The notes under the pieces are model-generated. The model saw only the letters and a list, made by a program, of their open reading frames with translations, was not told where the DNA came from and did no database searches. The position numbers and the translations under genes were made by a program. Positions 1 through 10,207 of a stretch of DNA of 10,445 bases are shown here, piece after piece. This stretch comes from a bacterium. GTDB taxonomy: Bacteria; SAR324; XYD2-FULL-50-16. Numbering within the stretch: the stretch's first letter is position 1; every line of letters starts with the position of its first letter. The stretch covers positions 1 through 10,445 of the forward strand of contig JAVVEA010000027.1 in the NCBI GenBank assembly GCA_032250835.1. Reading direction: 5' to 3'.

Positions 1-134
1 CGGGCCATGTAATAACCCACCTGTTGGATCTCGCGGTCCTCTAGGTTTTTGATCACCTCCGAGGAACCTTCCTCGCCTAAAGCCAGCAACAAGATAGCCG
101 CCTTTTTGGGGCCCGTCAGTTTACCTACCGCCAT
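1..134 (-). CDS. fliG: Flagellar motor switch protein FliG, N-terminal 44 aa (runs off the left edge)
   Basis: Manual translation from ATG at 134: MAVGKLTGPKKAAILLLALGEEGSSEVIKNLEDREIQQVGYYMA. This matches the FliG N-terminal pattern L(T/S)GxxKAAILLLxLGEE. SD-like GAGGTG (complement of 141-146) lies 6 nt upstream. Not in the ORF track because it is truncated. Confidence 0.88.
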   Translation of the reverse strand, partial: MAVGKLTGPKKAAILLLALGEEGSSEVIKNLEDREIQQVGYYMA

Positions 135-181
135 GACCTACACCTCAAATCAAGCCAATAATCAAAATTGAGTGCGCCTCT

Positions 182-210
182 ATTTTGCACCAATTTAATG
201 CGAATGTCCA
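182..210 (-). promoter_or_regulatory. Candidate sigma70-type promoter for fliG
   Basis: On the minus strand TGGACA (210-205), 17 nt spacer, CAAAAT (187-182): 5/6 and 4/6 matches to TTGACA/TATAAT, in an AT-rich intergenic stretch about 48 nt above the fliG start. Confidence 0.35.
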
Positions 211-237
211 AAATCTTTCACCAACCTTTTCCCCATC

Positions 238-261
238 CAGCGGCCCAATGGCGCGCCGCTG
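238..261 (-). other. GC-rich stem-loop immediately after the deacetylase stop codon
   Basis: CAGCGGC (238-244) / GCCGCTG (255-261), perfect 7-bp inverted repeat with a 10-nt loop, abutting the TAG at 262-264. No U-tract. Confidence 0.45.
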
Positions 262-1548
262 CTAACCCTTGGTCAGTTCGCTCGCCCGAACCAACTCAAT
301 GCCCGCCGCCTTTAACAGGGGCAACATTTCTTTTAAAACCGCCAAGGTATCTTCGCGGGGGTGCCCGATGGCAACGGCTATCCCTTGGCTTTTGGCCAGT
401 TCCATCGCCTTCAAAAAGGCGGCGTGCACCGCCTCTTTGCTAGGGTCTTGATCTAAAAACAGGTTGCGACTGAAAAAGGGCACCGCGTATTTTTTGGCTT
501 CCGATAACGAAGTGGTGCTGGCGGCGGTCCGGCTATCTAAAAAGAACATCCCCTGGGCACTCAGTTCCTTCATCACCTCGGCCATGCCCGAAGCGTCCTG
601 GGTAAAGGCCGAGCCCATGTGGTTGTTGACCCCAATAGCGTGGGGCACCGAAGCGAAATTTTTGCGCAACTTCAACATCAAGGTTTCTGGGTTGTCGCTG
701 GTCAACAAAGCCCCAACGCCGGGGTTGATCTCGGGAAACTGCATCGGCTGCATGGGCATATGCAACATCACCTCAAGCCCCATGCGGTGAGCCATTTCGG
801 CGGTGGCGGTGCTGTGGCTTAATTGCGGTAAGACCGAGAAGGTCAAGTTGGAATTCAACTTGGCGAAGCGCTCAAAGACGCCCATATTTTGGCCCATGTC
901 ATCGATGATGATCACCAAACGCCCCTGGGGCCCATTGGCGGCCAATTGTTCGCCAAAAGAGTCGGTGTCGATGGCCGGGACCGCCAACGGGGCGGCTTCG
1001 GCTAAAGGCTTGTCTAGAATCTCCGGCTCCACTTCGGGCTTCTTGCCTATCTTAGCCTGGGCCCCACGCTGCGCTTCGACACGCACCCAAAGATTTCCCT
1101 CTTTTAAAAAGTCCAACTCGTAACGCGGCACCTTGCCGCTGCCCTGGTTGGGTGTCAGTTTTTTGATCTTGATCCCTAAACCTTCTTGTACGGCAAAGGC
1201 CTGGGCTAGATCAAAGAGGCGTTCTTCCTTGATGCGGTTGAACTTTTGTAGGTAAGAAACATAACCATGCCCACCCAAGCCTTCTACCGAAGCCACTCGG
1301 TCGGTTTGTTTGAACAGTAACAGCCCCCCATGACTTTGGCGCAAATGGGCCGACAAACGCCGGGCAAAGTCCTTTTGGGCCTGATAGTTTTCTGTGCGGA
1401 TGTCCAGGTTTTCGGCACTCGGGAGGTCATCAGGAAAACTGGGAGTGCGGGCAAATACCAGCGAGAAACACAACATGAGAGCCAAGACCCCAATTCCGGC
1501 ATAGGCTATTTTGGGGTTACTGAAGAAACTCTTAAATCGGTTCAGCAT
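262..1548 (-). CDS. Divergent polysaccharide deacetylase family protein (YibQ/DUF610-like) with N-terminal membrane anchor or signal peptide
   Basis: 428-aa ORF. The C-terminal half has the family motifs IIIDDMG, HMPMQP, GVNNHMGS, FFLDSRT, RNLFLD and AIGHP. Hydrophobic segment IAYAGIGVLALMLCFSLVFA near the N-terminus, then about 170 aa of unassigned sequence including a Pro/Ala/Glu-rich linker. Confidence 0.9.
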   Translation of the reverse strand: MLNRFKSFFSNPKIAYAGIGVLALMLCFSLVFARTPSFPDDLPSAENLDIRTENYQAQKDFARRLSAHLRQSHGGLLLFKQTDRVASVEGLGGHGYVSYLQKFNRIKEERLFDLAQAFAVQEGLGIKIKKLTPNQGSGKVPRYELDFLKEGNLWVRVEAQRGAQAKIGKKPEVEPEILDKPLAEAAPLAVPAIDTDSFGEQLAANGPQGRLVIIIDDMGQNMGVFERFAKLNSNLTFSVLPQLSHSTATAEMAHRMGLEVMLHMPMQPMQFPEINPGVGALLTSDNPETLMLKLRKNFASVPHAIGVNNHMGSAFTQDASGMAEVMKELSAQGMFFLDSRTAASTTSLSEAKKYAVPFFSRNLFLDQDPSKEAVHAAFLKAMELAKSQGIAVAIGHPREDTLAVLKEMLPLLKAAGIELVRASELTKG

Positions 1549-1570
1549 GGTGATCCAGCAAGATTAGGTT

Positions 1571-1612
1571 GGCAGAGGCCGGGGAAAAATGACGCCCCCC
1601 GGCTCGACTGCC
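1571..1612 (-). other. Intercistronic imperfect stem-loop between the glpX-like gene and the deacetylase
   Basis: GCCGGGG (1578-1584) / CCCCGGC (1597-1603) core, flanked by GGCAG (1571-1575) / CTGCC (1608-1612). Confidence 0.45.
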
Positions 1613-1635
1613 CATTAGAAAAGCAAGGATCGTTC

Positions 1636-2580
1636 CTAGAAGACCGGCATGTGGTCAAAGAAGTGGGTCGTTTCGATCCGGCGGAAGGTTCGGCTTTCTC
1701 CCCTAGCCACAAAAGAATGGGTCACCGCACCGTTACGGGTAAAGTGCACCCCGTTTAAAAACTGCCCTTGGGTGATGCCGGTGGCGGCAAAGGAAACCTC
1801 GTGGCTGTCGGCGAGGTCTTCTACCTTATATACCCGCTCGGGCTGTTCCATCCCAAACTCACGCGCCAGCGCCCGGTCAGCGTCGTTTTCGATGATCAAA
1901 CGGCCTTCTAGGTATCCACCTAAGCAGCGGATCGCGGCGGCGATCATGCCTAAATCAGGGGCCAAACCGATGCCCATAAACAAGTCGGCCTTGCCGGTCA
2001 AAACCGAGAGCGCCCCAGAGATTTCGCCCGCAGCGATTCGCTTGATCCGCGCTCCACAGGACTGGATTTGGGTGATCAATTCATGGTGCCGAGGCGCGTC
2101 TAAAACCACCACCGTGATGTTTTCAGTGTATTTCTTTAAAGACCGCGCCACCCGCTTAATATTAGTCGTCGGGGGTTGGGTTAGGTCCACCACGCCATAG
2201 GCCTCTTGGGGTACCACAATCAACTCGGCCCAAAGCCGCGGGAGAGGCATTAAATTTCCCGGCGTGGCGATGGCGGCGAAGCTGGCGGAGTTGTTTTTCC
2301 CATGGGCAGTGGATTCAAAGCCCTCCACGCTGAGGCTCGCGATTTCCATGTCGTTGGTGCCGAAGCCCGCCGAGGGCGGCAAGGGCATGATCCCTTCTTT
2401 ACCCATAAAGCGGTCGTTGATCACCTGCGCGCGGACATTGATCCGGCCCAACCCGCGCACCAAAGCGGCGCGCGAAGCGTTCAGCAGCCGCTTGGGGTCG
2501 CCTTGACCTTGGTGTAAAGCAGCCGTCAAAGCAGCCAGTTCGGTGGCCCGAACCAGCTCCATCCCGTAGTTTTGGTCCAT
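1636..2580 (-). CDS. glpX: GlpX-family (class II fructose-1,6-bisphosphatase fold) protein with degenerate active site
   Basis: 314-aa uninterrupted ORF, colinear with GlpX end to end: MELVRATELAAL, GxGD, TVVVLDAPRH, GARIKRI, DLFMGIG, AAAIRCLGG, FAATGITQGQFLNGV, THSFV...RTFRRI. Catalytic and metal-binding motifs are altered (see findings). Confidence 0.88.
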   Translation of the reverse strand: MDQNYGMELVRATELAALTAALHQGQGDPKRLLNASRAALVRGLGRINVRAQVINDRFMGKEGIMPLPPSAGFGTNDMEIASLSVEGFESTAHGKNNSASFAAIATPGNLMPLPRLWAELIVVPQEAYGVVDLTQPPTTNIKRVARSLKKYTENITVVVLDAPRHHELITQIQSCGARIKRIAAGEISGALSVLTGKADLFMGIGLAPDLGMIAAAIRCLGGYLEGRLIIENDADRALAREFGMEQPERVYKVEDLADSHEVSFAATGITQGQFLNGVHFTRNGAVTHSFVARGESRTFRRIETTHFFDHMPVF

Positions 2581-2588
2581 AGTGTAAA

Positions 2589-4391
2589 TTAAAGCGCCAA
2601 TGCGCGGATTTGGGTGATCAGCTCGCGGCGTTCCGCCTGTAATTCCTTGGCTTTTGAGGTATCGCGCACCTGTTTGGGGCGGTCGAATTCATCAATCACC
2701 TCAACCCGCAACGGCACCGACTCACTCTTTAGGTTAGCTTCCTTCATCTCTTCGGGCGTCGGTAAGATGATCCCGTACAACATGGTTGGGGTGTGGACCA
2801 GCGCATGCCCACGGTTGTAATAGGCTGCTGCAAACCCGCCGTCCACGTTAATCGCCACGCCATCTTCGCTGGCCATACATTTGCCTTTGGTCACGTCCAC
2901 CGGGGTGTGCCCAAAGATCACCCGATCGGCATGAAATTCCTTTAATATCTTTTGCTTAAAAGATAAGGTATCTAGGTTTTTCTTCCAAAAGAGGCTCGGT
3001 TCCTTGTGGGTTTCTTTATCGTTTAAGTAGTAGCGCTCAAAGGTCTTCATCGCTTCTTTACCAAAGAAAGGACTTTTGGGGCCGCACCAGAGATAAAAGA
3101 ACAACGCCTGATCGGCTTCGGGAACTTGGACACCGGCTATGTATGCCTTTCCAGCCCGCTTGATGCTCGCATCGATATGGTCGAGCAAGGGCTTGCCCCG
3201 ATGGCCCAGAAATTCTTCAAACTCGCCATCTGCCGTACTGGGGATCAAGGCGTGGATGTTGAGTAAGTTGTGGTGCACAAAATAGGTGTGCCCCTTCTCG
3301 AAGAAAAAGGATAAGAGCCGTTTGAGCTGGACATTACTGAGGAACTGACGTTCCAAATCATCAATCACCGCCCTTTCTTCGGGCGTTAGTTGCGCCGGGT
3401 GGTCGGGGTCGATGGTCGGGAAGTGGGTGTCGTTGAGTCCTTGGGTTTGACCGCTTTGGAGCATCTCGCCCAAGAGCCGGATCGAGCGACGTCCCTCCAT
3501 GTTCCATTCGGGATGTTTGCTGATCAGCCTATCTTCTAGTTTAAACTGGATCACGCTTAGGGCTTTTTCCATCGCCCGCCCCAGGTCGGTCTTGGCCTTA
3601 AACTTGGCCGTGGCCAGTTCCACCGGGTAGGTCTTTTTGGCAAATTCAGCTAGCTTGCTGTAGTCGATACCGAGCCGCTTGATCAGCTCAAAGTGATCAT
3701 AGCGGCTGCTGATGCGCATCGCTTCAGCGATCAAGCTACGGTTGCCGGTGGCAGCGCCCATCCAAAGAATGTCATGGTTGCCAAAGACCATCCGCACAAT
3801 GGGCTGGTAATTCTTTGAAGACAAAATCCGGATGATCTTGTCGGGCTGAGAGCCCCGGTCCCAAATGTCGCCTAAGACGATGATCCGGTCGAGCAGGACT
3901 TGCTTGATGGTGTGGCAGAGATGGGTGATGAAGCGCTCGGCAATGGCGGGTTCCTCAAAAACCGGATCGGGCACCTTCTGGTCCGCAATCAGGCGGCGTA
4001 CATATTCGCGATATTCTGGCTGGATCACCTCGTTGAGGTTATAGTCGACGTTGTCCAATTTATATTTGATGATGTCTGCCAGACAAAGGATTACGTCTTG
4101 GCGGTCCATCTTCAGTTCCCGGTCGTCGAAGTAAGACTGTTTGCGGATCACCCGCACCAAATATTGCAGTTTGGCTTCGCTGAAAGTTTTGGGTAAGGCT
4201 TCTTTACAGGTCTGGTAGGTCATCCCGAAACGACCGCGCAGGATGCTTTTGAAGCGGTCCCCTTCGCCGTGCAGGTCGCTGATCCAAAGGGTGGTCGGGA
4301 TGTTGGAGTTCAGGCGGCTGTCGATCTCTAGCAGCCTTTTTGAAAGTTGGTCTAATTGCTCAACGCCGCTTAAGTTGCTGGCCAAATTCAT
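2589..4391 (-). CDS. fbp: Class III fructose-1,6-bisphosphatase (Bacillus Fbp/YydE type, metallophosphoesterase fold)
   Basis: 600 aa. Metallophosphoesterase motifs [23 protein letters not shown] and FGHTPV, plus class III signatures [37 protein letters not shown] and [15 protein letters not shown] about 9 nt upstream of the ATG. Confidence 0.9.
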
Positions 4392-4433
4392 AGGTATTCG
4401 CCTCCAAGGTGAATTTCCCGCGTGGGTGCTCGT

Positions 4434-4799
4434 CTAATGTTGTTCGGCAATAAAGAACAATTCCTGGCGTACCTGTTCGGGGTCTCCGCTATTTAACTCC
4501 ACCAAACGACGCAAATGGGTTAGGCTGTCAATGTTGATTTCATCGAAGCGGAAGCCGTTTTGAAGCCCCTCTTGAAAGACCAAGGTAGCGCTCGTATCAA
4601 TCGAAGCATTAGCCCCATCCAATTGGATCGAAAACTGGCATTTATCTCCCTTGGAAATCTCCAAGGGTGCTTCGCAATGGACCAAAGCCCCTTTCAGGCT
4701 AAGGTCAATCAATTGGCAGATTTGCTCGCCCTTAGGCAGGTCGAGCTTGACCGAATGTTCAAAAGGAATCCGGTGGAAATGGCGGCGTTCTGAACTCAT
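4434..4799 (-). CDS. Single-domain PilZ protein, predicted c-di-GMP receptor
   Basis: 121 aa with both canonical motifs: RxxxR (ERRHFHR) and DxSxxG (DLSLKG). Ends in GFRF...LTHLRRLVELNSGD, typical of stand-alone PilZ proteins. Confidence 0.9.
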   Translation of the reverse strand: MSSERRHFHRIPFEHSVKLDLPKGEQICQLIDLSLKGALVHCEAPLEISKGDKCQFSIQLDGANASIDTSATLVFQEGLQNGFRFDEINIDSLTHLRRLVELNSGDPEQVRQELFFIAEQH

Positions 4800-5058
4800 G
4801 AGGGGCTACTGGATGGGTCACATTACTTATTGTTGTTACCTTGGACAGTTTACTGAAAAAAAACGCAAAGGTCCAATCCTTCTTTTTGCGGTTTGCTGGT
4901 CTCTGGTAGTTGAAACTTTAGAAGAAATTGAAGACATCCCAATATCTGGCTTGTTTTCTTAAAGGCCTCTAGATAGCCTCAGGGCCAGGATCTGCCCGTC
5001 CTCTCCCGATTCCCAGGGGTATCCGCCCTCTTATTATTCATATTAAAGGACTTTTACC

Positions 5059-6654
5059 ATGTCTTTGCGTGACCTTAAAATCGGCTATAAACTCTACGCC
5101 GGTTCGCTATCGATGCTGATCCTCTTTGCCGTTGCTAACGGCATCAACTTTTGGGGTATCAACTTTTCAAATCAGTCTTCAGACCTTTTGGCCACCCGCT
5201 ACCAGCAGATCACCCTGTTCCAAGAGTTGGAACAGCGCAATACGGGCATCATCTTGGTGATGATGGAAATCCTGCTGGATAAGGACACAGGAAAAGTAAG
5301 CGCTGAGCGAAAAACCAAACTGGCCAACATTTTCAATCAGATTGAAAGCGAACACCAGCTTTTACTCGCAGCTGCCGACACCAAGGAAGAAAAAGCGAAT
5401 GTCGAGTTGATCATCAAAAATGCCACGGCTTTAAAAAACCTTGCGGTACAGGACCTCTATCCGGCCATCGAACAGCGGTTGATCACCCCACAGTTCATGG
5501 AGCGCATGGACGCGCAGATCGACGCCAAAGGGGCCCAGAATAGCCAGTTGATCAAGGCGGTCACGACCAGCATCCAAGGCGAGATCGAGGAAGCCCGCCA
5601 GAGCCGAATGTCCGCATTGGATCAAGTAAACCTCTGGTCTACTATCGTATTGGTCGGCGGCTTTGCCGTTGGGGGTTTGGTCGCTTGGCTGTTAACGGCC
5701 AGTTTAAAAACCCCCATCGTCGAAATGATCGGGCTGCTCAAAAATATTGCCGAGGGGGACGGAGACTTAACCCAACGGCTGAACCTCAACCGCAAGGACG
5801 AGATCGGCGAAATCGCCTATTGGAACAACCGGTTTTTAGACAACATCCAACCCATCATCCGCGAGATCCAAGATCTATCGGCCACTTTGGTTTCTTCATC
5901 TGAGGAGCTTTCGGCCACAGCCACCGAGATGAACCAAACCACCGAGCGCATTGCCGAAGACAACGAGCGCAACGCTGCGGCAGTCAACCAGTCGACCACC
6001 TCGCTACAAGAGTTCAGCGCCGCCATTGAGAACATCACGCTCAAAATGCGCGAGATCAAAACCAAGTCCAGCGCCATCAACGATGGAGCCAACCGCGCCA
6101 ATGACGCGGCGCACCAAACGGACCAGTCGATGAAACAGATCGAGCAGTCGAGCCGCAAGATTGAAGGGATCATCCGCGTGATCACCGACATCGCCACCCA
6201 AACCAATCTCTTGAGCCTCAACGCCGCCATTGAGGCGGCCAAGGCGGGGGAATCGGGCAAGGGTTTTGCGGTGGTGGCCGAAGAGGTCCGCAGCTTGGCC
6301 GAGCGTAGCAATAATTCGGTTAGCGAAATCCAAAACCTGATCGAGACCAGCTCTGCTAATGTCTCTCAAGGGATTTCAGTGATCGACCTGACGGTGGAAG
6401 TCTTGCAAGGCATCATCGCGCAGATCAGCGACATCACCGCCGAGATCAACGAAATCACGGTAGGCGTCACCCAACAAGAGGCCAGCGTCCACGAGATGAC
6501 CAAAAGCGCCGACGAAATGGCCGGAACAGCCGAGAATAGCGTGATCTCTCTGCGCCAGCTTTCGGACGCCACCAGCGAGGTCGCCAAGACCACCGAAGAC
6601 CTGAGCCAGATGGCCTTGACCTTAGAATCCAAAGTGGGACGGTTTAAGGTATAA
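5059..6654 (+). CDS. Methyl-accepting chemotaxis protein (TM, periplasmic helical sensor, TM, HAMP, signalling domain)
   Basis: 531 aa. Two hydrophobic segments (about aa 11-33 and 192-213), HAMP motif [12 protein letters not shown]...DEIGEIA, hairpin tip [48 protein letters not shown] at 5045-5050. Confidence 0.96.
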
Positions 6655-7316: not shown

Positions 7317-8741
7317 TCATTGGTGTTTGTATTGCCGGGCGACACCAGACTCAACAGCGGCCTTGAAGACCGCAGCGGCCACGTTTTCGGCCACATGTCG
7401 GTTAAAGACGCTGGGGACAATGTAGTCGGCAACGGGGCGTTCGGTTCTAATTGAGGCAGCAATAGCTTGGGCAGCCGCCATCTTCATCTGCTCATTGATG
7501 CAGCAGGCATAACTGTCTAGGGCACCGCGAAACAAGCCTGGGAAGCACAACACGTTGTTGATTTGGTTTGGGTAGTCGCTTCTGCCGGTGGCCATCACCG
7601 CCACGATTCCCTGGGTTTCCTCGGGCATGATTTCAGGAATCGGGTTCGCCATGGCGAACACAATCGGGTCTTTGGCCATTTTTTTAATGTCCTCAACCTT
7701 CAACAATCCAGGGGCCGAGAGCCCAATAAAGACATCGGCACCCACTAAAGCGTCGGACAAGGACCCTTGTAAATTGGTCGGGTTAGTCCAGTCGGCGTAA
7801 GCGGCTTTGTCTGAATTAAGGCCCTGTCGACCGCGATAGATTGTCCCTTGCCGGTCACAGCCGATAATGTTTTTGACCCCAATGGTCGCCAACATCTCAG
7901 AGCAGGCGGTCCCCGCCGCCCCCACACCAGAAACCACTACCTTGACCTCACCGGCTTCTTTGCCCACCACCTTTAGGGCGTTGATAAAGCCCGCCACGAG
8001 GACGACAGCCGTGCCGTGTTGGTCATCATGAAACACCGGGATGTCCAACTCCTCTTGCAGCCGCCGTTCTATTTCAAAGCACCGCGGAGCCGAGATGTCT
8101 TCTAAGTTGATGCCCCCGAAGCCGGGGGCAATGGCCTTGACGACCCGCACAATCTCGTCGGTATCTTTGGTGTCTAGACAGATGGGGAAGGCATCGACAT
8201 TCCCAAATTCTTTAAACAACATCGCCTTGCCTTCCATCACCGGCATGGCGGCCTCGGGGCCAATATCGCCGAGTCCCAAAACGGCGGTGCCATCGGAGAC
8301 AATGGCCACCATATTTTTCTTGATGGTCAGCTGGTAGGCTTTGGTTTTGTCTTCATGGATGGCCATACAAACCCGCCCCACCCCTGGCGTATAGGCTCTA
8401 GACAATTGCTCGCGGTTTTTAATCGGGATCTTATTGGTCACCTCGATTTTGCCGCCAAGGTGGATCAAAAAGGTGCGGTCCGATAGGTGGAGTACCTTGC
8501 AGCCTTCCAATCCACCCAGCATTTCGGCAATAGTACGACCCGCCTCATAACTTGTGGTCTCGATAGAGATATCGCGGACCATATGGTCCGCCTCAGCGCT
8601 CACCACGTCAATGGCCCCAATCGCCCCATTTTGCTCATGTACCAAGTTGATTACACGGCTCAATACGTCCAGGTCATTTTGTAACTTGAGCCTAACCACA
8701 ATGGAAAAACTGGGGTCTGTTTTGCTATTTTCAAGGGCCAT
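7317..8741 (-). CDS. NAD(P)-dependent malic enzyme with N-terminal ACT domain
   Basis: Motifs AYTPGVG, SDGTAVLGLGDIGP, PVMEGKAMLFKEF, GINLEDI, FHDDQHGTA, GVGAAG, FAMANP and ATGRSDYPNQINNVLCFPG. The first ~85 aa resemble an ACT domain (IVVRLKL...GAIGAIDVV...RDISI). No C-terminal PTA domain. Start reassigned from the track's 8831 to ATG 8741 (474 aa), which has AGGA 5 nt upstream. Cofactor specificity cannot be called by eye. Confidence 0.93.
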   Translation of the reverse strand: MALENSKTDPSFSIVVRLKLQNDLDVLSRVINLVHEQNGAIGAIDVVSAEADHMVRDISIETTSYEAGRTIAEMLGGLEGCKVLHLSDRTFLIHLGGKIEVTNKIPIKNREQLSRAYTPGVGRVCMAIHEDKTKAYQLTIKKNMVAIVSDGTAVLGLGDIGPEAAMPVMEGKAMLFKEFGNVDAFPICLDTKDTDEIVRVVKAIAPGFGGINLEDISAPRCFEIERRLQEELDIPVFHDDQHGTAVVLVAGFINALKVVGKEAGEVKVVVSGVGAAGTACSEMLATIGVKNIIGCDRQGTIYRGRQGLNSDKAAYADWTNPTNLQGSLSDALVGADVFIGLSAPGLLKVEDIKKMAKDPIVFAMANPIPEIMPEETQGIVAVMATGRSDYPNQINNVLCFPGLFRGALDSYACCINEQMKMAAAQAIAASIRTERPVADYIVPSVFNRHVAENVAAAVFKAAVESGVARQYKHQ

Positions 8742-8855
8742 GGAATTCCTGGGGGTTATCTGGGGGATTGATCTATTCGACCTATGCGCACCGGACTGGC
8801 CATTAAGGACAGGAAAATTGCGGCGCAGCAAGGGGGCACCGAATCAAACGTAGCT

Positions 8856-9248
8856 TTAGGACTCTTTGGAAAAGCCACACTCGCGCATAAAGCCTTCAAT
8901 TTGCGCCAATTCAATGGGCTTTCGGACAAACAAGTCAGTCCCGTTTTTGAAGCCTCTTAAGATGGCATCGGTTTGAACATGAGTGGTAGAAATGACGATT
9001 GAAGGCTGTGTCACTCCATTGGCACGCTCAAACCCTCTGACTTCTTTGGTCATGTCGTTTGCGTCCATATTGTGGGCATCAACATCCGCAAAGATGACGT
9101 CATAGGGAGTTTTGGCGGCGTAAGCCCGAAAGAAGCGGTCCAGCCCGTTCACGCCGTCTATCGCTACATCCACGTTACCATAACAACCAAAAGCATTTTC
9201 AAGAAGGCGGGTGTTTGCATAGCTATTAGTCACCAAGAGTATGTTCAT
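8856..9248 (-). CDS. Single-domain response regulator (CheY-like receiver), atypical
   Basis: 130 aa receiver pattern: MNILLV (beta1), PYDVIFAD (phosphoacceptor D55), IVISTT (beta4 S/T), FVRKP (K110-P111). The acidic pair after beta1 is replaced by Thr-Asn. Confidence 0.82.
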   Translation of the reverse strand: MNILLVTNSYANTRLLENAFGCYGNVDVAIDGVNGLDRFFRAYAAKTPYDVIFADVDAHNMDANDMTKEVRGFERANGVTQPSIVISTTHVQTDAILRGFKNGTDLFVRKPIELAQIEGFMRECGFSKES

Positions 9249-9445: not shown

Positions 9446-10207
9446 TCAAGCCTGAAGTTGATTGGTAGACCTACCTTTATCGGTCAGGACCTCTCTCAGG
9501 AGGGCCGTCAATTCCTTTCCGGCCATTTGGATTGCGTGATGGAAATGGATGTCTCGGTCGTTGAAGTCATCATAAAAGTAATAGAGTCCTCCAATCGCCT
9601 CGTAGTATTCTTCGTGCATGGTATACATATTCCGGCTCTTATCCAGTAATTGCTTTGCCCTGGCAAACCAACGAGTTGATTGTTCACTTTTGCCAACACA
9701 GGCCTCGTATTTAATGCCCGCTAACGTGTGGCTTACACCTGCGTAAAAAGGAGTGAATAGGAGCGGCGACTGGAATTTCTCATAGAGGTCGTCAAATCGT
9801 TCTATCAAGCCTTCTAATTCGGCTGCGGCCGTACCCTTATCTTCTTGATCGTTTATTACTGGTTCTTCCTTCGGCGCTCGCGTGGTTTCACTTGTTTGTA
9901 TCTTCGTCGACACTTCCTTGGGTTGCGCCCCAGTGCCTACTGCGTCTGAGAACTCTGGACATTTCCGCAGTTTGATTTGCAAGCTTTTGTAATCGATCAG
10001 TACCTTTAAACCATTCAACTGGTTGCTGATTGGAAAATAGTGCAATTCCAGCAACTGATTCAACTGATCAACAAAGAATTGATCACAATCTTGACCGGAA
10101 GACCCACCATCTGGCTTTGCACCGCCTGGACCCGGATCGATTTGACTTCCTGCTTCGTCACTTGTTTTTTTCGTGTCTTGATTCGTCCCAATCAATTTCT
10201 TCAGCAA
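9446..10207 (-). CDS. Hypothetical protein; start uncertain, possibly the C-terminal part of a larger interrupted gene
   Basis: 253-aa ORF from a TTG with no evident SD. Helical-looking segments with two polar low-complexity inserts and an aromatic/acidic C-terminal block (YYEAIGGLYYFYDDFNDRDIHFHHAIQMAG). The frame stays open to 10405. Confidence 0.62.
   Translation of the reverse strand: MLKKLIGTNQDTKKTSDEAGSQIDPGPGGAKPDGGSSGQDCDQFFVDQLNQLLELHYFPISNQLNGLKVLIDYKSLQIKLRKCPEFSDAVGTGAQPKEVSTKIQTSETTRAPKEEPVINDQEDKGTAAAELEGLIERFDDLYEKFQSPLLFTPFYAGVSHTLAGIKYEACVGKSEQSTRWFARAKQLLDKSRNMYTMHEEYYEAIGGLYYFYDDFNDRDIHFHHAIQMAGKELTALLREVLTDKGRSTNQLQA

Follow-up and report, generated by a model that had tools for sequence, protein, structure and literature searches.

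The committed reaction of gluconeogenesis is carried out by fructose-1,6-bisphosphatase (FBPase), and how this enzyme is controlled decides which way carbon flows. The class II enzyme (GlpX) and the class III enzyme (Fbp) catalyze this same step with unrelated folds, and class III is the least understood FBPase class. In Bacillus subtilis, GlpX is present beside the class III Fbp as a second FBPase. A DPxxGT/S signature is common to the whole Li-sensitive phosphatase superfamily. SuhB, a protein with the inositol monophosphatase (IMPase) fold, has a role in rRNA transcription antitermination that is independent of phosphatase activity, and its catalytic residues are kept. Dead paralogues that partner an enzyme are known from HisZ-HisG, an ATP phosphoribosyltransferase with a catalytically dead histidyl-tRNA synthetase paralogue as its regulatory subunit, and from the trypanosomatid S-adenosylmethionine decarboxylase (AdoMetDC), whose prozyme is a pseudoenzyme partner. 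Here, we analyzed a stretch of DNA of 10,445 nucleotides (the window) from a bacterium of the SAR324 phylum (GenBank assembly GCA_032250835.1, contig JAVVEA010000027.1), in which a class III fbp gene is followed by a gene for a GlpX-like protein with a heavily altered catalytic site. The fbp gene (2589-4391, minus strand) encodes the 600-aa protein P0002, the presumed catalytic partner. The second gene (1636-2580, minus strand) encodes the 314-aa protein P0001, which has a full-length class II FBPase fold and is referred to below, together with its close relatives, as degenerate GlpX. As the first-pass annotation of the window had stated, the two genes are separated by 8 bp (2581-2588, minus strand) from the fbp stop codon to the start codon of the degenerate glpX gene; neither reading frame contains stops or frameshifts.

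Degenerate GlpX shares its fold and length class with the described class II enzymes (E. coli GlpX, M. tuberculosis Rv1099c, Francisella FtFBPaseII, and the cyanobacterial fructose-1,6-/sedoheptulose-1,7-bisphosphatase, FBP/SBPase). P0001 matched the Pfam family PF03320 (FBPase_glpX) over profile positions 2 to 307 of 307 with 275.7 bits (cut-off, 27). With the NCBIfam equivalog TIGR00330, it scored 184 bits and stayed below the cut-off of 259.3, above which the same function is expected. Its identity to GlpX proteins was 30 to 34%. The AlphaFold 2 model of P0001 had a predicted local distance difference test score (pLDDT) of 93.4 and a predicted template modeling score of 0.91. In a Foldseek search, the model matched solved GlpX structures (3roj, 6ayv, 7txa, and 3big) with template modeling (TM) scores of 0.87 to 0.93; the next fold neighbors were SuhB and IMPase, with TM scores of around 0.4. 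The scaffold had been called intact in the first-pass annotation, and the model agrees with this description.

According to excerpts of PMC5892879, the catalytic site of class II FBPase consists of ten residues (D33, E57, D85, E88, T90, Y119, K164, R166, D188, and E213), and excerpts of PMC10289334 place the M1 metal site at 84-DPLE-87. The same excerpts of PMC10289334 identify the Thr89 hydroxyl as the nucleophile (in the Francisella enzyme, T89A was inactive and T89S was slow), and they assign the 6-phosphate to the R-x-R pocket and the furanose hydroxyls to the DGD motif. The T84A variant of the M. tuberculosis enzyme was likewise inactive (excerpts of PMC5892879).

P0001 was aligned with GlpX of E. 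coli K-12, Francisella, Synechocystis, and M. tuberculosis, and E. coli numbering is used for the residues. Five of the ten catalytic-site positions are lost in P0001 (D33L, D85L, T90F, Y119W, and K164A), two are identical (E88 and R166), and three carry acid-for-acid swaps (E57D, D188E, and E213D). D186 is replaced by Ala. At the M1 site, L83-S-V-E86 stands for Asp85-Pro-x-Glu88, and Phe88 occupies the Thr90 position. All motif changes that the first-pass annotation had listed against the E. coli protein were seen in the alignments: GDKNTAD33 became GDPKRLL, IGE57GE became INDRF, D85PIEGT90 became LSVEGF, DMY119M became RLWA, K164PR became APR, D186GD became AGE, and GGAPE213G became GLAPDL. 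The loss of Asp85, Asp33, and Thr90 indicates that hydrolysis of fructose 1,6-bisphosphate (FBP) by the known mechanism is strongly disfavored, and degenerate GlpX is predicted to be without FBPase activity.

The degenerate form turned out to be a conserved clade and no one-off. A search of 5.8 billion proteins retrieved hundreds of 315-aa relatives of P0001 at 50 to 71% identity, and the degenerate signature was common to all full-length relatives listed. The named relatives came from Desulfobulbaceae, Desulforhopalus, or Desulfopila and carry the NCBI label "fructose-bisphosphatase class II family protein." A FastTree phylogeny with 117 members of the family placed the degenerate relatives of the window's protein in one group of 21 rows, with a Shimodaira-Hasegawa-like support of 100. 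The clade covers one order of SAR324/Lambdaproteobacteria type and part of the Desulfobulbales.

Residues were compared between 49 nonredundant degenerate rows and 46 canonical rows, which were chosen for having D85 and T/S90, so that these two columns are canonical by construction. At the second metal site, made up of Asp33 and Glu57 in the class II enzyme, D33 was L in 48 of the 49 degenerate rows, and at the M1 site D85 was replaced by V (27 rows), I (20 rows), or L (2 rows). The Thr90 position held H (24 rows), Y (18 rows), Q (4 rows), F (2 rows), or L (1 row), and this variation indicates that no new catalytic residue has arisen there. Y119 was variable, and R/K164 was occupied by Q in 31 rows, K and R in 6 rows each, H in 3, A in 2, and V in 1. 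In contrast, E88 was kept in all 49 rows, H167 in 48, and R166 and E213 in 46 each. The acidic character was also preserved at E57 (D in 49 rows), D188 (E in 49 rows), and D186 (E in 44 rows), giving EGE for DGD; the window's sub-branch has AGE. A new N-D-R-F motif replaces G-E-G-E in the clade, with D56 and R57 in 49/49 rows, N55 in 98%, and F58 in at least 90%. The "switch" columns, fixed in both groups with different residues, were D33L, G56N, E57D, G58R, P86A, D186E, and D188E, and 73 columns were invariant across the 49 degenerate rows.

Judged from these residues, the pocket of degenerate GlpX is asymmetric: on the side of the metal and the 1-phosphate, residues are either lost or free of constraint, and on the side of the sugar and the 6-phosphate, they are preserved or replaced conservatively. 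Binding of a sugar phosphate or similar ligand, without hydrolysis, may thus persist in this pocket, and the Arg of the NDRF motif may stand in for the lost metal. Compared with the described class II enzymes, degenerate GlpX thus keeps E88, R166, H167, the TGxT and GG motifs, and, in most members, E213. It differs from them in lacking Asp33, Asp85-Pro86, Thr90, Tyr119, and the first basic residue of R/K-x-R, in having EGE and NDRF, in its sub-equivalog score, in being the sole family gene of its genomes, and in its tie to class III.

Asp85 and/or Thr90 were also missing from many further representatives of GlpX-family clusters at dispersed positions in the tree (P0130, P0132-P0135, P0142, P0144, P0149, P0156, P0169, P0178, P0215, P0223, P0251, and others), in a list that is biased because the query itself was degenerate. 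The scatter indicates that catalytically altered GlpX seemingly arose several times.

Codon alignments of 81 degenerate glpX and 74 fbp genes gave 117 orthologue pairs with a synonymous distance (dS) below 1.5 in both genes. Over these pairs, the median ratio of nonsynonymous distance (dN) to dS was 0.116 for degenerate glpX and 0.146 for fbp. Among the closest pairs, dN/dS of degenerate glpX was 0.00 to 0.07, and the gene was as conserved as fbp or more so. Between the window and its two nearest relatives, dS was saturated; dN was 0.25 to 0.31 for degenerate glpX and 0.23 to 0.25 for fbp. None of the 81 full-length copies contained a stop or frameshift. The catalytic residues were thus lost while degenerate GlpX stays under purifying selection. 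The first-pass annotation had argued for a retained rather than a decaying protein, and dN/dS values far below 1, not above those of fbp, bear this out.

Of 80 public loci, 78 had fbp immediately before degenerate glpX in the same orientation, and the remaining two were cut by contig ends less than 180 bp upstream. The degenerate clade therefore stays directly downstream of class III fbp at all assessable loci (78/78). The spacer was 0 to 5 bp long in 27 of 79 loci, with a mode of 4 bp. Within the window's order, the class III family PF06874 was found in 20 of 24 genomes and a GlpX-family gene in 16, as a single copy and always together with PF06874. The 15 loci of this order other than the window comprised 12 with adjacent genes, 1 that was cut, and 2 in which the genes were unlinked (genomes G001 and G002). 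Among 151 sampled Desulfobulbales genomes, the 25 with degenerate GlpX, scored at at least 540 bits, were exactly the 25 with PF06874 above the cut-off, and the two genes were adjacent by coordinates in 25/25; this sample partly overlaps the 80 public loci, so that the counts are not independent, and related genomes are not independent observations. Adjacency and co-occurrence support the tie to class III fbp that had been proposed from the window.

Every genome with degenerate GlpX had one PF03320-type gene (16/16 in the window's order, 25/25 in the Desulfobulbales sample, and three cultured strains), and a canonical GlpX beside the degenerate one was found in none of the genomes examined. 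In the cultured carriers, Desulfopila sp. IMCC35008, Desulforhopalus vacuolatus DSM 9700, and Desulfoprunum benzoelyticum DSM 28570, the single PF03320 gene is degenerate glpX, and PF00316 was not found. Whether the window's genome has another, intact glpX had been raised in the first-pass annotation; this genome, which is 97% complete, contains no second PF03320 gene and no PF00316 or PF01950 gene (class I or class V FBPase). It has one phosphofructokinase. In the rest of the window's phylum, GlpX-family matches were weak only, at 132 to 203 bits in 10 of 64 genomes.

The partner of degenerate GlpX resembles the class III FBPase of the Bacillus subtilis Fbp/YydE type in that it is a PF06874 protein of full length in which every metallophosphoesterase motif is present. 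P0002 matched PF06874 with 356.5 bits over profile positions 14 to 631 of 639 and the Metallophos family with 39.4 bits, and its gene is the only PF06874 gene in the window's genome. The metal-binding motifs had been described as intact. In 49 fbp orthologues, GDxxDRG, GNHD, GH, and H380 were invariant, and the DxH motif (D39-x-H41) was at least 90% conserved, in line with that description. P0002 is predicted to have FBPase activity, given its family and given that, apart from degenerate glpX, the genome contains no other FBPase-family gene. A sequence search of the Protein Data Bank with the class III protein matched no solved structure.

The partner fbp belongs, by its sequence, to a divergent class III subfamily, a point that goes beyond the first-pass annotation. 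P0002 shared only 31% identity with a typical class III protein over residues 151 to 597, with the motifs from GDxxDRG onward aligned. The PF06874 scores of the type paired with degenerate GlpX were around 340 to 385 bits, compared with 877 bits for the typical class III protein of the Desulfobulbales genome G186, which has no such fixed partner. Since the paired fbp is itself divergent, the conserved unit consists of a divergent class III gene and a dead class II gene. Genome G186 carries the typical class III gene alone (C4:297480-299393, locus L107) and also a divergent fbp/degenerate glpX pair (C8:202289-205073), indicating that the two class III types are not simply interchangeable orthologues.

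These results point to degenerate GlpX as a nonhydrolyzing, ligand-binding partner or regulatory subunit of the divergent class III FBPase, a reading to which we give a probability of roughly 0.55. Because the protein is selected without its catalytic residues and is encoded nearly always directly behind fbp, it most likely works with the class III enzyme and not as an enzyme. In the proposed mechanism, the two genes would be on the same transcript and probably translationally coupled, and degenerate GlpX would act with the class III FBPase, the only recognizable FBPase in these genomes. By binding a sugar phosphate or some other effector, degenerate GlpX would tune or stabilize the class III enzyme. 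The half of the pocket for the sugar and 6-phosphate would serve this binding (Arg166, His167, Glu88, Glu213, and EGE for DGD are kept), and the invariant Asn-Asp-Arg-Phe would have been gained at the former second metal site. We infer the physical association with Fbp, the ligand binding, and the regulatory role from these patterns. Translational coupling is plausible from the gene spacing. No Shine-Dalgarno sequence was evident on reading the 8-bp spacer, and in consensus scans for promoters and terminators over positions 1 to 5200, counts were not above those of shuffled sequences, with no call inside the spacer.

The logic of HisZ-HisG and of the AdoMetDC prozyme would be shared by this pair, in that a dead paralogue concerned with the same metabolite is selected and encoded with an active enzyme, with the regulation here being proposed. 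In contrast to HisZ, degenerate GlpX is a paralogue of an isofunctional enzyme with an unrelated fold, neither of its own partner nor of a tRNA synthetase, and some relatives do without it. A literature search, with supplements outside its scope, found no description of a degenerate GlpX or of a GlpX/class III pair, in agreement with the earlier remark that no such described system was known. A more specific and doubtful extension is that the pair is an undescribed heteromeric FBPase, in which the dead class II paralogue would sense the substrate, the product, or an effector as the allosteric subunit for a class III catalytic subunit of unrelated fold. The Arg of NDRF would replace the metal and grip the phosphate without hydrolysis, and the pair might be a dedicated switch against futile cycling between FBP and fructose 6-phosphate in sulfate-reducing or sulfur-disproportionating Desulfobulbales and in SAR324-type bacteria.

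A complex of Fbp and GlpX had been suggested in the first-pass annotation, and its prediction gave weak support. The complex of P0002 and P0001 scored 0.37 (0.42, 0.37, and 0.32 in the individual runs), compared with 0.01 for the best of three controls; the runs agreed in at least 100% of the contacts, and the pLDDT of the partner was at least 86. Of 80 solved complexes, 58 reached the mark for a complex, as did 2 of 110 mismatched pairs; this calibration holds only roughly because the prediction used its own 49-row alignments. With scores of 0.60 or below, the mark was reached by 7 of the 80 solved complexes and by both mismatched pairs. Given the strong genomic prior, the prediction may raise the odds of an association a little.

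Several observations weigh against a partnership of degenerate GlpX with class III FBPase. In the score range of the predicted complex, a pass is more often wrong than right unless the pairing is likely beforehand. A search for fusions among longer proteins found no PF03320-PF06874 fusion, which is weak evidence, and one 607-aa protein with PF03320 only, at 32% identity. A search of sequencing runs for the locus found no RNA run and one soil-metagenome DNA run with a small word share. Acidic residues able to hold a metal survive in P0001 (D56, E86, E186, and D209), so that degenerate GlpX may still carry out some chemistry. Degenerate GlpX is also not obligatory. Three genomes of the window's family (G018, G020, and G021; 96 to 100% complete) have a PilZ-domain gene, fbp, and a YibQ-like gene in a row without it, and G004 makes a fourth relative with fbp alone, indicating that the class III enzyme of some relatives functions without degenerate GlpX. 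The window's sub-branch has a long stem in the degenerate GlpX tree (0.47, compared with 0.22 for fbp) and extra pocket changes (AGE, with the E186 equivalent changed to A, E213D, and G210L). Since more of the pocket is lost there, the argument for ligand binding is weakest for the window's own copy. In locus L016, R166 and H167 are lost as well. Finally, in the complete single-contig genomes G001 and G002, degenerate glpX is about 165 kb and 67 kb, respectively, away from fbp.

The trees give these exceptions a history. In the fbp tree, the window groups with two "Candidatus Lambdaproteobacteria" genomes, and the sister of this group is formed by the fbp genes of G018, G020, and G021 (support, 99). 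As these have the same synteny without degenerate glpX, the gene was lost secondarily in the three genomes. Desulfobulbales subclades match between the degenerate GlpX and fbp trees, indicating that the pair was inherited as a unit. The long stem, the pocket changes, and the unlinked intermediate forms of G001 and G002 together suggest a looser or different constraint on degenerate GlpX in the window's lineage. The intermediate forms have lost D33, D85, and T90 and keep Y119, RxR, DGD, and E213. The genomes G001 and G002, both from family f2, are complete and small (2.4 and 1.6 Mb; loci L104 and L105), and the neighbors of the intermediate glpX are a 3-dehydroquinate synthase gene in G001 and a YibQ-like gene and an NAD-dependent DNA ligase gene in G002. 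A metagenome scan with the intermediate type found four loci only (L110-L113), on marine metagenome contigs, which encode another GlpX variant with the motif DALECD and have no class III gene within 4 kb.

The alternative that fits the data next best, although unlikely, is that degenerate GlpX is a neofunctionalized enzyme, whose acidic cluster (D56, E86, EGE, and E213) and Arg57 would hold metal or substrate in another way and catalyze another sugar-phosphate reaction. This could be a phosphatase reaction of different specificity or a nonhydrolytic step before or after the class III enzyme, and a complex would be unnecessary. The strong purifying selection and the several surviving carboxylates speak for such an enzyme, the switch columns look like a changed rather than an abolished site, and operon partners are often successive enzymes. 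However, the DPxxGT/S signature of the superfamily is gone, members of the clade differ at the nucleophile position (H, Y, Q, F, or L), and no new invariant polar candidate for catalysis stands out besides D56 and R57. Moreover, L016 and the sub-branch of the window show further erosion of the pocket, and the linkage to fbp is kept.

It is quite improbable that degenerate GlpX has a noncatalytic role apart from the class III protein, such as a structural, nucleic acid-related, or transcriptional role like that of SuhB or sensing for another target, with adjacency reflecting co-regulation. SuhB, which has the same Li-sensitive phosphatase superfold (TM score of around 0.4), is a precedent for a noncatalytic function of this fold, but nothing at the degenerate glpX locus hints at a context of RNA or transcription. 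A separate role would explain why the gene is kept unlinked from fbp in G001 and G002, where it lies beside the YibQ-like gene in the latter, why relatives with fbp do without it, and why the prediction of a complex gave weak support. It accounts poorly for the 25/25 co-occurrence, always in adjacency, among the 151 Desulfobulbales genomes, for the 78/78 assessable loci with adjacent genes and very short spacers, and for the presence of a class III fbp in every examined genome with degenerate GlpX (16/16 in the window's order).

That degenerate GlpX is still an ordinary FBPase, a redundant second enzyme, is very unlikely. The full-length GlpX fold, the NCBI label, and the retention of E88, R166, H167, and E213 in most members would suit such an enzyme, but Asp85 and Thr90 are lost in 49/49 rows, D33 is L in 48/49, and the TIGR00330 score of 184 is below the cut-off of 259.3. 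Thr-to-Ala variants of two class II enzymes were inactive (excerpts of PMC10289334 and PMC5892879). A decaying relic of a once-active glpX without present function was rejected as extremely unlikely: sister genera have deleted the gene and the window's sub-branch is on a long stem with extra pocket substitutions, but 81 full-length copies are free of stops and frameshifts, dN/dS is 0.116 in the clade, dN in the window's sub-branch is close to that of fbp, 73 columns are invariant in 49 rows, and the structural model is confident.

Outside the conserved two-gene core, the window contains a PilZ-domain gene (4434-4799, minus strand; PF07238, 62.9 bits) 42 bp upstream of fbp. A PilZ gene was found upstream of fbp in 9 of the 80 public loci and in G018, and this neighbor is confined to the SAR324/Lambdaproteobacteria-type lineage. 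In this lineage, the small stand-alone PilZ gene upstream of fbp is conserved, genomes without degenerate GlpX included (the window and loci L020, L021, L026, L046, L058, L069, L073, L098, and L100-L102). The arrangement may link cyclic di-GMP to gluconeogenesis. The gene 87 bp downstream of degenerate glpX encodes a YibQ-like divergent polysaccharide deacetylase (262-1548, minus strand; PF04748, 253.7 bits). It is a lineage-specific neighbor as well and directly follows fbp in the relatives without degenerate GlpX. Within the 87-bp spacer, a G+C-rich inverted repeat (GCCGGGG ... CCCCGGC, around 1575-1605, minus strand) was found by eye; it has no T-run behind it and was not called by the terminator scan.

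Farther along the window, a malic-enzyme gene (7317-8831, minus strand) encodes a 504-aa protein in which the malic N-terminal domain begins at residue 127 only, leaving an unexplained N-terminal extension of around 125 aa. The gene immediately upstream of it encodes a stand-alone response-regulator receiver (8856-9248, minus strand). The 253-aa product of the reading frame at 9446-10207 (minus strand) had no Pfam match at an E value of 0.01 or below.

In 41 genomes (16 of the window's order and 25 Desulfobulbales), degenerate GlpX was the only match to class II FBPase. Where automated metabolic reconstructions treat this protein as an FBPase, they are therefore probably wrong. The cultured carriers make the function of degenerate GlpX directly testable. 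If degenerate GlpX is a nonhydrolyzing partner of the divergent class III FBPase, it would provide a clear example, in bacteria, of a pseudoenzyme taken over from an enzyme family that has the same function as its partner but is unrelated to it.

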